A stretch of 64,000 nucleotides of DNA from Candidatus Latescibacterota bacterium. GTDB taxonomy: Bacteria > Latescibacterota > UBA2968 > UBA8231. Made by a program: the position numbers and the translations under genes. This document shows positions 2,635 through 13,708 of this stretch, piece by piece (position 1 is the stretch's first letter; each line of letters begins with the position of its first letter). The stretch is taken from the NCBI GenBank assembly GCA_965203175.1, contig OZ241867.1, positions 5,952,001 through 6,016,000 of the forward strand. Reading direction: 5' to 3'. The notes beneath the pieces were generated by a model, which saw nothing but the letters and a program-made list of their open reading frames with translations, made no database searches and had not been told where the DNA came from.

Positions 2635-2652
2635 TGACGGAAGAGTGCGCGC

Positions 2653-3256
2653 CTGCTAGCATTCTGGGGCAAGACGCTGCGTAGTTCTGACAATTCCTCG
2701 GGAACTGTATTCAATGATACCGAAGGGCAACGTAGCTATAAGCCTGTCTTACATCATTTAATGGATGTCGCTGCTGTCGCCCTGAGATGGCAGCAATTGA
2801 ATCCTGCCCGTCTTGAGCGCGAGGTCGCTTTGCTGAAAGCGAGTCCAGAGTGCTTATCCAAGATCACTTCTTTTCTGGCTGGCATACACGACCTTGGCAA
2901 AATTTCACGCGGCTTTCAGGCGAAGGTACCCGAATTGTGGCCAGAGCAGATCCCTAGCCCGAAGAGAGCAATCGCCGACCGTGGTCATTGGCGCAACACG
3001 GCTATCCTTCTCAGAGCCGAGCCAATCGCCCAAGAGTTCGCCAGCTTATTCCCTAGCATCCCTTATGATATAGCACCGATCATTGCTGCCATTGCGGGGC
3101 ACCATGGACGACCACCCGAGGGACAGGATGAAGTAAACGCCGATCCAGGCAAAGCTCGACGCGACCAGCAGCTTCGTGAAGAATGCGTGGACGCGGCTCA
3201 TACTGCCTTTTGTATTCTCCAAAACCTGATAGAGCCTCTGCCGTTATTGTCGCTCG
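2653..3256 (+). pseudogene. cas3: Truncated CRISPR-associated Cas3, HD nuclease domain only (type I-E-like)
   Basis: In-frame FWGKT...YKPVLHHLMDVAAVA, IHDLGK, GFQ, AIAGHHG; no helicase motifs; the frame runs into a CRISPR repeat at 3257 and stops at 3375; no ATG upstream of FWGKT. Confidence 0.85.
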
Positions 3257-3347
3257 ATGTTCCCCGCAGGCGCGGGGATGAACCGTGGACCGTTTTCTTT
3301 TTCTCCCGACCGAAGACAATGTTCCCCGCAGGCGCGGGGATGAACCG
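3257..3347 (+). CRISPR. Type I-E CRISPR array, left part: 2 repeats, one 33-bp spacer
   Basis: ATGTTCCCCGCAGGCGCGGGGATGAACCG at 3257-3285 and 3319-3347; resembles the E. coli-type I-E repeat. Confidence 0.92.
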
Positions 3348-3607
3348 CTACCTGGTGCAGCCGTCGCTGCACTAGTTGAGGCCCTAGATGTAGCGATAGA
3401 CGAACTTTTTGGTCAATGGCCAGGACACCCAGCCGATGTTCCGAAAGGCAAAGTCCAAAGCGCGTTGCTTAGCCTGTATGGCGTGGCTGGCGAAGCGTGT
3501 GACGACTGCGCCCGCTGGAATGCACGCCAATAAAGGCGAACCCGCAGGCGGTGGCCTGTGGCCGGTCAATGGGCCGCCGCCGGAGACTTTATGAAAAGGA
3601 AGGAGGA

Positions 3608-4300
3608 ATGATGGACTATCATATAGAAGTCAAGAGAGCAGGGGGAAGGTCTCGCCACTTTCGTGGCTGCATCCCCAATGAAGACTGGTCTCGATTATTA
3701 GAATTCAGAGACGAAGTCCGCCGCATGACATCTCATTTTGTGAGATGCGGTATTACAAACCTGAACATTAGCACTACTCTCTCTTGGGATCAGGATGGGC
3801 TTAGATTCTCATCTAAAACTGATCTCAATGATGGACACATGAACATTATTCTCCATAGTATCAGACCTTTCCATCTTAAAAAGGAGCCTTTTTACTTTTG
3901 TAAAATGCTAAAAATTCTCAATCGCCATATAAATGGAAACCCTATTAACATGCTTTTTCGTAAAGCGAAAGACGATTTTCTTGGAAGAAATTTTCAAAGC
4001 CAAGTTTCTATTTCTTCCATTTTGGGTGCCGATCCGGGGCAGCATCACACTATTAACAGCGAGGATACGCTAAATCTATGGCTTAATGCGTATGAATACC
4101 ACAGAGACGAAAAGAAGAAGTTGCTTCTCGATGATATTTTGTCTAGTATTCCTAGGGGGTTTGGGGTCTCTGTATTTAAGTCTATGATGATAGACAAAAT
4201 AAGAGCCATCATATGGCTTAGTGATTTTATTTCCGCTATAGAAGAGTCGCCAACTGGAAGACGCTCGGCAAACGTTAAAAAGGAGGTGCTTGATGAGTGA
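3608..4300 (+). CDS. Hypothetical protein, AT-rich, inside the CRISPR insert
   Basis: Strong RBS (AAGGAGG) before ATG 3608; long ORF in AT-rich DNA; overlaps next ORF. Confidence 0.7.
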   Translation: MMDYHIEVKRAGGRSRHFRGCIPNEDWSRLLEFRDEVRRMTSHFVRCGITNLNISTTLSWDQDGLRFSSKTDLNDGHMNIILHSIRPFHLKKEPFYFCKMLKILNRHINGNPINMLFRKAKDDFLGRNFQSQVSISSILGADPGQHHTINSEDTLNLWLNAYEYHRDEKKKLLLDDILSSIPRGFGVSVFKSMMIDKIRAIIWLSDFISAIEESPTGRRSANVKKEVLDE

Positions 4301-4919
4301 GAGTATCGAACATGTCCAAAAGCTGAGAAAGTTGAAGATGGCTTTCTTTGATTTGGAAGAGGCGTGGAATTATACTGAAATTCTGTTGAAAGGAAGATAC
4401 CATGAGGCCGACCCTTTTTCTTGGCATCCTAGAGGTAGGCCGCCAGAGGATCATCATATGAGAGAGGCATTAGTGACTGCCTTGGTTATCTCTCTATCTC
4501 GTGCCCAAAAATACTGTGAGGAGTGCCTTGAAACCCAAGAGGAAAAAGATTTTGCTAGAATGGTTAAATTCTTTAGAGATAAATACTTTGCTCATTCTGA
4601 CATTCTCCCTTATGGACCGAGTTTTATTCGTCCTGCTTGGGACGAGGGGCACACAAGACAGGCTCGGAGCCTAATAGAGAAAACCTTTAGACATTTGAAG
4701 AATAGCAATGATATAGCCAGAACCCGTATCACCCCTGAGATGACAAACGTCACTGAGTACCGTGTCGAAAATATCACATTCGACGAAATGTTCAAGCGAC
4801 TCAACGAGCTAGGCCAAGAAGGGTGGGAACTTTGGGAGCCTTTTGGCGAGAGGAAGAGGATACTAGATGAAGTGAAAAGAGAGTGGTTTTATAGAGTAGG
4901 TTTCAAGCGGATGCGCTGA
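4293..4919 (+). CDS. Hypothetical protein with HEPN-like motif and DUF4177-like C-terminus
   Basis: RBS AAGGAGG; FRDKYFAH (Rx5H); C-terminal EYRVE...LNELGQEGWEL. Confidence 0.6.
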   Translation: MSESIEHVQKLRKLKMAFFDLEEAWNYTEILLKGRYHEADPFSWHPRGRPPEDHHMREALVTALVISLSRAQKYCEECLETQEEKDFARMVKFFRDKYFAHSDILPYGPSFIRPAWDEGHTRQARSLIEKTFRHLKNSNDIARTRITPEMTNVTEYRVENITFDEMFKRLNELGQEGWELWEPFGERKRILDEVKREWFYRVGFKRMR

Positions 4920-4946
4920 AAAAGATCCTCATATCCCAGAAAAGAG

Positions 4947-5364
4947 ATGCCAACGACCAACCTTAATTTCTCCCCCGGCACCGTCTTCCACATGGACAAC
5001 TTGGAAGCACTGAGGGGCATGAACAGCAACACCGTCGACCTGATCGCCACCGATCCGCCGTTCAACACGGGCCGCAACAGGGAGGGCAAAGGCGGCCAGT
5101 ACCCGGACAGTGGCGTTGGGGCGACAATGTCCACTACGAGTGGATGGACCAGATACGCGACGACAACGAGCCGTTAGTTGAAGTGATTGAGTCGGCGATG
5201 CATGCGCACAGCTTCAACCTCGGCGCGTTCTTGTGCTTCATGGGCGTCCGGATGCTGGAGATGAAGCGGGTGCTCAAGGAGACGGGGAGCATTTACCTGC
5301 ACTGCGATCCCACGGCGAGCCACTACCTCAAGGCGAGCATGGACGCCGTGTTTGGTGGTGCCGA
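4947..5364 (+). pseudogene. Site-specific DNA methyltransferase (N4/N6, beta class) fragment, frameshifted and truncated
   Basis: DNLEALRGM...DLIATDPPFN; frameshift near 5108 (WRWGD...EWMDQI continues in another frame); LKETGSIYLHCDPTASHYLK; ends at CRISPR repeat 5365. Confidence 0.85.
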
Positions 5365-5515
5365 ATGTTCCCCGCAGGCGCGGGGATGAACCGTGGATTC
5401 GGCCAGACAAGCGGTTGGCGATCTAATGTTCCCCTCACACACGGGGATGGACTGTTGGTTGCATGACGACAATGACGACTTATGCCATATTCTCCACACG
5501 CGCGTGCTTAGGTGC
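5365..5515 (+). CRISPR. Type I-E CRISPR array, right (trailer) part: one perfect and two degenerate repeats
   Basis: Perfect repeat 5365-5393; degenerate ATGTTCCCCTCACACACGGGGATGGACTG 5426-5454; very degenerate ATATTCTCCACACGCGCGTG from 5487; both spacers 32 bp. Confidence 0.85.
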
Positions 5516-5620
5516 GAAAACGGAGAAGATTCTGAGCGGCAACGGTAGCAATACCTTGCTGCTGAGCTACCTACATTCTAAACTCTAAAGCGACCCATGC
5601 GTTGATTAAGGAGTCCAAGA

Positions 5621-5917
5621 GTGAGCTTACAGAACGTTCCAGACAGCATTAAGCGCGATGTGGCCCGCGGAGTGGCGATCCTCAAAGAGGCAGGCTGTCA
5701 GCAGGTGTACGTGTTCGGCTCCGTAGCAGAGGGGCGCGTACGGCCCGGCTCAGATATTGACTTTGCCGTCCGCGGCTGTCCGGCGAAACTGTTCTTCAAA
5801 TTGCAGGGAAGACTGCTCATAGAATTGCGTCGCTCCGCGGATCTGATCGACTTAGATGCAGACCCAGATTTAACGGCCTTTCTCGAACGCGAAGCGGGCA
5901 TGATCCATGTTGGATGA
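5621..5917 (+). CDS. Minimal nucleotidyltransferase (MNT) antitoxin
   Basis: VYVFGSVAEG...SDIDFAV motif, 98 aa. Confidence 0.88.
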   Translation: MSLQNVPDSIKRDVARGVAILKEAGCQQVYVFGSVAEGRVRPGSDIDFAVRGCPAKLFFKLQGRLLIELRRSADLIDLDADPDLTAFLEREAGMIHVG

Positions 5918-6410
5918 TCGTGCTCAGGCCCACATTGAGCGAGAATTGCAGCAGATCGAGAGCCTTTTTCTAGAATATCGCACACTGCTATCTGAGACTA
6001 GTATCAATGAACCCAATCTCGTTGAATTAACTGCATTAGCGGGCGTTCTCCATTCGTTCTATAACGGTGTGGAAAACGTATTCCAGACTATTGCTAAGCG
6101 AGTGGATGAGCAGATGCCAACTGGATCGAACTGGCATTGGGAGCTTCTCCACTTGATGGCTCGCAAGACGGACAACAGGCATCCTGTCGTCTCTCCAGAA
6201 ACAATAGATCGCCTTGAGCCGTACCTTGGATTTCGCCACTTCGTACGACACGCTTATTCCTTTCGGCTGAATTGGACGAAAATGGAGGATCTTGTGCTTG
6301 AGCTAGGCGAGGTCTGGTCAACATTTCGACAAGACATCAGAATATGGCTGGACTCAAAGCCAGAAGGATCTGTTGATCCCGATTCAAGCTCGCCAACGCA
6401 AAAAGAGTAA
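5907..6410 (+). CDS. HEPN (HepT-like) ribonuclease toxin
   Basis: LHSFYNGVENVF, WHWELL, FRHFVRHAY (Rx4H); overlaps MNT gene. Confidence 0.88.
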   Translation: MLDDRAQAHIERELQQIESLFLEYRTLLSETSINEPNLVELTALAGVLHSFYNGVENVFQTIAKRVDEQMPTGSNWHWELLHLMARKTDNRHPVVSPETIDRLEPYLGFRHFVRHAYSFRLNWTKMEDLVLELGEVWSTFRQDIRIWLDSKPEGSVDPDSSSPTQKE

Positions 6411-13369: not shown

Positions 13370-13708
13370 ATGAACATGTCTCTTAGGACGTTGCGCAATT
13401 ACGTTTCCCCACAAGGGAACGTGCCCTTTGATGATTGGTTGGAGTCTCTCAAAGATAGAAAAGCACGAGCTATCATCCGCAACCGAATTAATCGCGTGCG
13501 ACAGGGCAATATGGGCGATGCCGACTCTCTAGGTGGAGGTGTGTTTGAACTGAGAATCCACTACGGTCCGGGGTATCGCGTGTATTATGGAGAACTGGGA
13601 AGGACGATCGTAATTTTGCTCTGCGGCGGTACTAAACGATCACAACGCCGCGACATTGAACGCGCCAAAGCATATTGGCAGGATTTGAGGAGTCACAGTG
13701 ATGAATGA
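13370..13708 (+). CDS. RelE/HigB family addiction module toxin
   Basis: GNMGD..SLGGGVFELRIHYGPGYRVYY...LLCGGTKRSQRRDI. Confidence 0.92.
   Translation: MNMSLRTLRNYVSPQGNVPFDDWLESLKDRKARAIIRNRINRVRQGNMGDADSLGGGVFELRIHYGPGYRVYYGELGRTIVILLCGGTKRSQRRDIERAKAYWQDLRSHSDE

Follow-up and report, generated by a model that had tools for sequence, protein, structure and literature searches.

A gene-sized interval in a spacer slot of a decayed type I-E CRISPR array from a Latescibacterota bacterium, and comparable joints at repeat edges in its relatives

The stretch studied here (the window) comprises 64,000 bp of contig OZ241867.1 of a Candidatus Latescibacterota bacterium (assembly GCA_965203175.1, forward-strand positions 5,952,001 to 6,016,000), whose genome is available as a single 6.58-Mb contig with an estimated completeness of 93%. 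Near its beginning the window contains the remains of a type I-E CRISPR array, in which one spacer slot is occupied by 2017 bp of gene-carrying DNA and in front of which a truncated cas3 gene extends exactly to the first repeat. An earlier note on this DNA, made from the sequence alone, had described identical 29-bp type I-E repeats starting at 3257, 3319 and 5365 and degenerate ones at 5426 and 5487, and this description is borne out. The repeat unit is ATGTTCCCCGCAGGCGCGGGGATGAACCG (29 nt, i.e., a 27-nt core with two invariant leading bases), and the core has exactly three exact matches within the window (3259-3285, 3321-3347, 5367-5393), none in 100 shuffles of the window and no further copy elsewhere in the genome. 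The array exhibits the signs of type I-E (repeats of about 29 nt, a palindromic core, an end in ...AACCG, spacers of 32-33 nt), but the unit-length rule for all spacers is broken, the spacer lengths being 33, 2017, 32 and 32 nt. The locus is composed as follows:

2638-3256, plus strand: cas3 pseudogene, HD-domain part, corresponding to about residues 13-215 of a Cas3 of 926 amino acids; ends at R1
3257-3285, plus strand: repeat R1, 29 nt, perfect
3286-3318, plus strand: spacer S1, 33 nt, unique; other letters in contigs of the public runs X1 and X17
3319-3347, plus strand: repeat R2, 29 nt, perfect
3348-5364, plus strand: inter-repeat interval ("giant spacer"), 2017 bp
5365-5393, plus strand: repeat R3, 29 nt, perfect
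5394-5425, plus strand: ancestral spacer S3, 32 nt, the same as the last detected spacer in two relatives
5426-5454, plus strand: degenerate repeat R4', six mismatches in the core
5455-5486, plus strand: spacer S4, 32 nt, orthologous in two relatives
5487-5515, plus strand: terminal repeat R5', strongly degenerate
5516-5620, plus strand: array trailer, conserved among relatives

The block from R3 over S3, R4', S4 and R5' into the trailer aligns base for base with the trailer ends of the arrays in two relatives (G022 and G006), S3 being identical in all three genomes; R4' and R5' are therefore real repeats. S1 has no match among 773 spacers of relatives, in the bacterium's own genome or in the relatives' cas operons, and S3 and S4 have no match in these operons either. 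Among the relatives' spacers, 760 of 773 are 32 nt long. A scan against Rfam yielded a single sub-threshold match, situated on the repeat region, and a promoter and terminator scan of the window sequence gave results no better than those for shuffled sequences.

The DNA to the left of R1, which the earlier note overlooked, is not a leader but the truncated cas3. It matches Pfam Cas3_HD (E 1.6e-20) and shows 79% identity over residues 13-215 to the Cas3 of a relative (tblastn); its frame is open from 2638, with a start codon first possible at 2761. The homology at DNA level to the cas3 genes of seven relatives breaks at 3256|3257, that is, at the first base of R1 (around codon 215). The window's cas3 stump has two substitutions at 3221-3222, just ahead of the last 32-nt block.

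At the same chromosomal site, eight relatives possess the genes cas3-cse1-cse2-cas7-cas5-cas6e-cas1-cas2, followed by leader and array. A complete operon of this kind was seen in G001, G004, G006 (on two contigs), G009, G012, G014 and G022; in G008 it is interrupted by a contig end, and G056, which belongs to another genus, also has an I-E operon. The loci of the genus are flanked by the same short-chain dehydrogenase gene and the same downstream genes as in the window. Their arrays contain 22-224 copies of the same repeat, and the leader of about 108 nt is conserved across eight related loci. Other members of the genus are without the whole island. In the window, no sequence similar to the leaders of these eight loci precedes R1 or R3. 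Concerning the cas genes, Cas1 (PF01867) has no match anywhere in the genome, and tblastn with eight Cas proteins of a relative finds only the Cas3 stump. The locus is an orphan, non-functional I-E remnant, consisting of a cas3 stump, two repeats with a spacer, the 2-kb interval, and the two oldest units; without Cascade, Cas3, Cas1-Cas2 and leader, the array cannot give immunity. This orphan status had likewise escaped the earlier note, whose suggestion of a working capture site has to be given up for a dead remnant with neither leader nor cas1 nor any other I-E cas gene in its genome beyond the stump.

Parts of the stretch are present in 20 public runs from 15 studies, with sponge, coral and marine runs among them; four of the runs were compared, all in the form of contigs. 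Run X15 (possibly the source sample) contains a contig identical to 3333-5370, which spans the insert completely and reaches 15 nt into R2 and 6 nt into R3, and its depth is even (about 30) across the cas3 stump, the insert and the trailer. In X1, which stems from another study, a contig over 3319-4367 begins with the complete R2 and extends one kilobase into the insert, with five substitutions and a 9-nt in-frame deletion at 4319 (in ORF B, an open reading frame described below); a second contig (2807-3337) joins the cas3 stump to a repeat, which is followed by a different spacer and a further repeat. In X17, from a third study, a contig over 3257-5066 consists of a repeat, yet another spacer, a repeat, and the insert, with 29 substitutions including the differing spacer. 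A second contig of this run (5134-5393 and a further unit) passes from the methylase fragment at the right end of the insert through a repeat, an extra 32-nt spacer and R3-S3 into the trailer, and X17 also holds an "empty-site" form in which 2645 is joined to 6464. In X16 (probable source study), no contig covers 3792-4230, i.e., the middle and the end of ORF A, and a strain with a different or deleted ORF A may be the reason; a contig of this run starts at 4231 after 30 unlike letters. A joint from 3348 to 5366 appears in X15, resting on 28 repeat letters only, such that no inference was drawn from it. As the interval is present, bordered by repeat sequence, in contigs from three studies, the junctions considered in the earlier note as a possible misassembly hold, and the 2017-bp interval is real and inherited. 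Being shared by X15, X1 and X17, with the surrounding units changed since, the insert predates the split of these strains; the spacers neighbouring it differ among X1, X17 and the window.

Within the interval, the following features are found:

3348-3533, plus strand: open frame of 61 codons and a stop, entering from R2, about 59% GC
3611-4300, plus strand: ORF A, 229 amino acids, low GC, intact; uncharacterised family
4293-4919, plus strand: ORF B, 208 amino acids, low GC, intact; HEPN (AbiU2-like) N-terminal domain
4947-5364, plus strand: N4/N6 DNA methyltransferase pseudogene with a PF01555 N-terminus, cut at R3
5330-5332, plus strand: AAG, exactly 32 nt upstream of R3, where a protospacer adjacent motif (PAM) would stand had the final 32 nt formerly been a spacer or protospacer

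The first frame is possibly the tail of a cut gene; its 61 amino acids have no family match and no homologue in 76 genomes of the order or among longer proteins. Starting 5 nt in from the left end of the insert, at 3352-3375, there is an imperfect 10-bp hairpin (CTGGTGCAGC / GCTGCACTAG, 4-nt loop). ORF A and ORF B were described in the earlier note as intact-looking, AT-rich and provided with strong ribosome-binding sites, in agreement with the AGGAGG-type sites and a GC content of 32-46% as compared to about 60% in the flanks. ORF A belongs to a family with an invariant WLNAxEYH motif, members of which occur at 27-41% identity in many phyla, and it has no match in Pfam, PHROG, PADLOC or among PDB sequences. 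Ten neighbour proteins from 6 of the 23 loci of ORF A homologues were examined and point to restriction-modification/Abi surroundings: HsdM and HsdS flank the homologue in one locus, and the others include a nucleoside deoxyribosyltransferase-like protein, AbiTii and DUF4145. ORF B is a neighbour in none of the 23. ORF B, with RDKYFAH in its N-terminal domain and a C-terminal extension of about 70 amino acids, is rare (seven matches among 1.84 billion representatives). A homologue with 42% identity passes the HEPN_AbiU2 threshold (27.0 vs. 26.8 bits, E 3.7e-6), whereas ORF B itself reaches only E 0.17.

The methyltransferase gene, which the earlier note had seen cut off within about 8 bp of R3, is represented by its first 139 or so codons out of about 561-574, and one nucleotide is missing after 5102. 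Relatives of full length are methyltransferase-HNH proteins with a size of 561-574 amino acids, and the homology to them is clear up to 5356, 8 nt short of R3. The fragment shows 73-85% DNA identity to genes at other loci in 8 of 30 congeners. A second, shorter methyltransferase fragment exists in the bacterium's own genome (G000:C1:2271995-2272239, 85% DNA identity to 5016-5259), and comparable fragments are found in G011, G022 and G003.

None of the reading frames of 3348-5364 contains a transposase, integrase or Tns domain (Pfam, PHROG, PADLOC), and there are neither terminal inverted repeats nor a target-site duplication, the ends of 3300-5420 holding only the CRISPR repeats. The absence of such features had been reported before, and a decayed insertion sequence or integrative element with its own ends is accordingly not seen. 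The interval looks like a slice of a restriction-modification and abortive-infection defence island of mixed composition, and ORF A and ORF B may still be stand-alone defence genes. The earlier idea that the array might act as a capture site for defence genes is supported by no more than the defence-like appearance of this one cargo, and nothing shows selection for it.

No donor element was found in searches of phages, plasmids, viral contigs, metagenome contigs, the genus and the order. Against phage records, the DNA of the insert gave only a 65-nt methylase match to Streptomyces phages, and against plasmid records nothing; among the 31 genomes of the genus, only the methylase part has DNA relatives, situated at other loci. 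ORF B had no match in viral and metagenome contigs, a back-translated pattern of the left end of the insert had none in either of these two sets, and none of the relatives' 773 spacers matches the insert or its ends. By these comparisons, the interval is kilobase-sized DNA foreign to the lineage, which fills one spacer slot near the old (trailer) end of the array. In this respect, the earlier proposal that the array had received kilobase foreign DNA is upheld, and the three routes it named (aberrant Cas1-Cas2 integration, recombination of a spacer with its protospacer, repeat-mediated recombination) are all live candidates.

The insert cannot be read alone, as cas3 is joined to R1 in the same exact-edge way, and comparable junctions exist in relatives. 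An oversize inter-repeat interval, of the kind for which the earlier note had proposed to screen related genomes, is found in G009. This relative possesses an intact operon and an array of 223 repeats, the third-from-last slot of which is occupied by 382 nt containing a ribosome-binding site, a start codon, and a Lys/Ala-rich, repetitive open reading frame that is truncated by the next repeat. This oversize spacer is known from the assembly alone; it has no second copy in the genus and only weak repeat-like matches. Both oversize spacers are located at the old end of their arrays, two cases from which no conclusion is drawn; the position could reflect age, or a long and possibly polar insert may be less costly close to the trailer.

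In G044, the locus decayed independently and consists of the dehydrogenase gene, cas3 up to about residue 88, and the series repeat, spacer, repeat, spacer, degenerate repeat. The cas3 homology reaches within about 2 nt of the repeat, and the breakpoint in cas3 differs from that of the window. The first spacer (L076:4461-4492) matches cas2 at 26-28 of 32 bases in each of the nine intact loci, the match lying on the opposite strand, and in eight of the nine the protospacer is preceded by AAG. G044 thus carries a self-targeting spacer, whereas the target of this spacer was lost with the cas operon. The cas3 stump also shows a lineage-specific in-frame deletion of 21 nt, which ends 31 nt before the repeat. 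Together with the exact-edge cas3|R1 joint, the junctions in G009 and G044 place the insert event in a recurrent class of rearrangements at repeat edges. By contrast, G042 was dropped as a case of foreign DNA joined to a repeat, since the DNA before its first repeat is a native module. There, cse1 to cas2 are lost, and a small ORF with a degenerate mini-array (situated between cas3 and cse1 in G009) is joined to the remains of the main array, the first repeat being of another lineage's type; this loss is a plain repeat-repeat recombination.

Degraded I-E loci left by self-targeting are similar to that of the window in their I-E repeats, in spacers of 32-33 nt, and in a cas operon that is deleted here and retained by relatives, and a congener with the same kind of deletion (G044) bears a cas2 spacer with an AAG PAM. 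A review (PMC6990116) describes how autoimmunity can be escaped by losing the cas operon. The window differs, however, in that the deletion ends exactly where a repeat begins, as it does in a second, independent lineage, and in that one spacer slot is filled by 2 kb of gene-carrying DNA.

Concerning the boundaries of the units, variation within the repeat is greatest at its last base in eight of nine arrays (the ninth, with 22 repeats, is without variation); 756 of 786 repeats end in G, and the 30 others in A (19) or in C or T (11). One spacer of the G009 array matches its own chromosome at 32 of 32 bases (L081 C1:72949-72980; L082 C1:2567635-2567666); the bases flanking the protospacer are CCC, not AAG, and C replaces G at the end of the upstream repeat. 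Since the last repeat base equals the base before the protospacer in this match, the unit consists of the PAM base plus 32 nt, as is also the case in the I-E system of E. coli. PAM-less self-derived spacers are thus tolerated. One clean protospacer (that of the G044 spacer in cas2) shows AAG to be a PAM of this system. The 773 spacers of the relatives yielded two foreign matches in the bacterium's own genome, with GGC and TAG upstream, and when the G009 array was compared with ten congeners that have no array, two protospacers could be used, the units of both having a last repeat base other than G.

With this unit in mind, the position 32 nt before a repeat, where a crossover inside a spacer would be expected to leave the PAM, was inspected at each of the four joints. 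In the window, AAG at 5330-5332 has a chance of 0.014 per position in the methylase part. At the G009 joint, GAA stands 32 nt before the downstream repeat and AAG is one base off (31 nt), its chance there being 0.047 per position. The cas3|R1 joint of the window has AAA at this position (GAA, CAA or AGA in relatives), and the cas3|repeat joint of G044 has GGC. The PAM is thus in place, or nearly so, at the two oversize spacers and missing at the two cas3 deletions.

Repeat units also occur at ectopic sites within the cas operons of relatives. Between cas3 and cse1 of G012 (L024:10352-10421, minus strand), just upstream of cse1, there is a degenerate mini-array composed of a repeat-like sequence, a pseudo-spacer of 19 nt, and another repeat-like sequence, with similar arrangements in other relatives. 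The pseudo-spacer TAGTATGCTGTCGGCTAA resembles TAGTAAGCTGTTGGTTAA (15/18), located a few dozen bases downstream, ahead of cse1, and the mini-array resembles a self-regulator of the Cascade promoter of the CreR type. A small ORF of 74-78 amino acids (MNGRRISNELVG..., with a hydrophobic segment and a coiled coil) lies directly upstream of a 3-repeat mini-array in G009 (L026:2402-2852, minus strand) and in G042 (L075, minus strand, oriented 4374-4690); the arrangement is reminiscent of CreTA-like "addiction" modules, by which cas genes are guarded. G012 has a repeat-spacer-repeat unit with degenerate repeats between cas7 and cas5 (L024:6865-6954, minus strand), as have G022, G001 and G006:C107; no such unit was detected in G009, G004, G014 and G006:C61, where cas7 and cas5 are nearly adjacent. 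Furthermore, G062, a member of another genus, possesses an orphan repeat-spacer-repeat (L078, C1:629570-629656), whose two repeats are perfect and belong to the same family and around which no cas gene is found within 4.5 kb, and G045 has one repeat-like site.

As regards the surroundings of the array, a nucleotidyltransferase/HEPN toxin-antitoxin pair of the MNT-HepT type is located just past the trailer (5621-6410), where relatives carry an ORF of 492 amino acids; such a pair also adjoins the empty site, and occurs elsewhere, in island-free congeners. Further downstream (13370-13708), a small Gp49-like (HigB-type) ORF amid sugar-acid metabolism genes is probably part of another toxin-antitoxin cassette.

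For the origin of these structures, we tentatively put first that both types of junction were made by homologous recombination or single-strand annealing between 32-nt spacers of the array and matching protospacers, a reading to which we would give somewhat less than an even chance. For the cas deletion, a spacer derived from the bacterium's own cas3 and lying in direct orientation would recombine with its source, by which the rest of cas3 through cas2, the leader, and the newer part of the array would be removed. For the giant spacer, an invading element would enter the array via one matching spacer and would then be trimmed at a second, collinear spacer, unless both crossovers were simultaneous; what remains would be the stretch from the first protospacer to the second between two intact repeats. 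Later repeat-repeat deletions would have shrunk the array, and the neighbouring spacers now differ among strains. Spacer-protospacer recombination is ranked first because of a laboratory precedent, because self-derived spacers exist in the genus (the cas2-targeting one in the cas-deleted G044 and the PAM-less perfect one in G009), and because AAG is found at the right place. As to the precedent, Varble et al. are said to have described in 2019 a recombination of CRISPR spacers with protospacers in phage DNA at staphylococcal type II and III loci. As in the route proposed here, a spacer of about 30 nt would serve as homology and the joints would lie exactly at the spacer-repeat boundary; the staphylococcal work, however, reportedly describes hybrid phage-CRISPR molecules that transduce the locus, not a stable inherited array with a trimmed kilobase segment, and for the window neither matching spacers nor a donor are known.

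Several points weigh against recombination between spacers and protospacers. The giant spacer requires two crossovers at collinear spacers, the insert is matched by 0 of 773 spacers of relatives, its right-hand junction is fixed only to 8-9 nt, and no donor was found that would show the predicted PAM before the homologue of 3348 and a single contiguous source. The AAG of G009 is off by one, in AAG-rich DNA. The cas3 junctions show AAA and GGC although 96% of the array units have G at the PAM-derived base, and, with no PAM there, they need PAM-less self-spacers, which are rare. In G044, the cas2-targeting spacer directly follows the junction, such that the cas3-derived spacer would have to postdate a lethal one; it would also come from the strand that is disfavoured in priming.

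Another possibility, less probable in our view but with several observations in its favour, is that Cas1-Cas2 attacked the 5' edge of a repeat, as it normally does on the leader side, and attached the 3' ends of long DNA there. To form the giant spacer, the PAM-distal end would be measured 32 nt from AAG and the fragment integrated without removal of the DNA on the PAM side; the far end would be joined across the repeat and the repeat thereby duplicated, as in a casposon-like full-site integration of 2 kb. In the cas deletions, a broken chromosomal 3' end inside cas3 would be captured in cis at the leader|repeat junction. All joints would then be of one chemical type, arbitrary DNA followed by the first repeat base (cas3|R1 and methylase|R3 in the window, ORF|repeat in G009, cas3|repeat in G044), and no PAM would be needed at the two cas3 junctions, which have none. 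In G044, the junction directly precedes the cas2-targeting spacer with its AAG PAM, expected to be the newest; as this adjoining spacer should have been the newest, the repeat at the junction was probably leader-proximal. An end measured by Cas1-Cas2 would likewise have AAG 32 nt before R3; as integration predicts the same AAG and needs none at broken ends, the position of the PAM cannot separate the two routes, and no other direct evidence separates them.

Integration at repeat borders in vitro and a delayed trimming on the PAM side have reportedly been observed (by Nunez in 2015, and by Kim and by Ramachandran in 2020), whereas we know of no report of a kilobase integration by Cas1-Cas2 in vivo, and a narrow literature search found none. 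The I-E ruler normally trims prespacers to 33 bp, which also counts against this route, and the oversize spacers, lying near the trailer, would date from a time when the arrays had only two or three spacers. If integration is right, the window shares with casposons, whose casposase is a Cas1-solo integrase, that kilobase DNA was integrated by an enzyme of the Cas1 family with the repeat duplicated as target; it lacks, however, a cas1 gene (in the insert as in the genome) and terminal inverted repeats, only the duplicated repeat being analogous. That the I-E integrase may act like a casposase in nature, joining kilobase DNA or the cell's own broken ends to repeats and thereby yielding "macro-spacers" and precise cas deletions, seems to us a rather unlikely but not outlandish generalization.

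Third, the insert could be a decayed self-mobile element (transposon, prophage or integrative element) that targeted the array, inserted itself into a repeat or spacer with enzymes of its own, and later lost its ends and mobility genes by ordinary deletions, which we consider improbable. Defence genes are typical cargo of mobile elements, and an old spacer may have left its remainder in the first 24 nt or so of the interval. Elements with such a preference exist: according to the preprint 10.1101/2020.10.09.333658, the temperate phage PhiAP1.1 is integrated as a prophage in the CRISPR repeats of an S. pyogenes II-A array, using as attB an 8-bp core in the repeat that corresponds to the core of attP. 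The insert of the window, with its end no more than 8 nt from R3, is similar in geometry, and in both cases foreign kilobases lie between copies of the repeat, with spacer loss and rearrangement. PhiAP1.1, though, is a whole prophage with an integrase, whereas the insert of the window is without integrase or att core and has genes cut at both ends. PMC11837452 describes Tn7-like transposons that target CRISPR repeats by insertion in the upstream spacer with the repeat left intact, in arrays that may be orphan; this agrees with the window in the insertion adjoining an intact repeat, in the upstream spacer, and in the orphan array, but here there are no Tns genes and no transposon ends, and the right end is a truncated methylase. 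Besides the missing mobility domains, inverted repeats and target duplication, a right end in the middle of a methylase gene is no element end, two independent trimming deletions would both have to halt at repeat edges, and the two cas3|repeat junctions (exact to 1-2 nt) would be left unexplained. In a few, narrow literature searches, no description of mobility-free, exact-edged, gene-sized spacers was found.

A fourth reading, which we hold to be scarcely likely, is recombination between repeats with repeat-carrying DNA, such as an array, a mini-array or a solitary repeat situated on a plasmid, on a phage or in the locus of another strain. In this case, the giant spacer would be DNA that was imported from beside a repeat, or the region between two once-separate arrays. 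Repeat-repeat recombination demonstrably remodels the locus in the genus, as in the loss of cse1 to cas2 in G042, the first repeat of which is of another lineage's type, and both the ectopic units in the operons of relatives and the variation of the neighbouring spacers among strains are in line with it. It only relocates the question, however, since a methylase cut at a repeat and a gene tail at a repeat still need an origin. R2 is perfect, unlike a degenerate terminal repeat, the sequences ahead of R3 and R1 are unlike the conserved leader, and the genome has no second copy of the repeat outside the array. An assembly artefact, finally, can be neglected: identical repeats can mislead assemblers, and the contigs of the public runs are short and mostly break at repeats, but that of X15 matches the interval into both repeats at even depth, contigs of two other studies connect a full R2 (or R1-spacer-R2) to the insert and also cross a repeat between the methylase and the unit that follows, and the genome itself is in one piece.

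Arrays are thought to accept only spacers of unit length, and larger inserts are put down to elements with their own integration machinery. In the window, and in a relative with an intact system (G009), gene-sized DNA without mobility features is found between intact repeats. This suggests that the boundaries of CRISPR units can act as precise break-and-join points for large DNA. Whichever the route, unit boundaries can then serve as precise recombination points, and arrays can fix fragments of the very elements that they target. The cases also provide a countable signature for genome screens, namely inter-repeat intervals that exceed 100 nt, have exact edges, and contain a PAM at 32 nt from the edge.

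If joining by a casposase-like integrase is true, present-day Cas1-Cas2 would be linked to its casposase ancestry; arrays would be occasional entry points for whole genes, and the self-destruction of the locus would be a by-product of adaptation chemistry. If, on the other hand, the tentatively favoured recombination guided by spacers is true, the locus would constitute a natural record of CRISPR memory promoting both the gain of genes and the loss of the locus itself.

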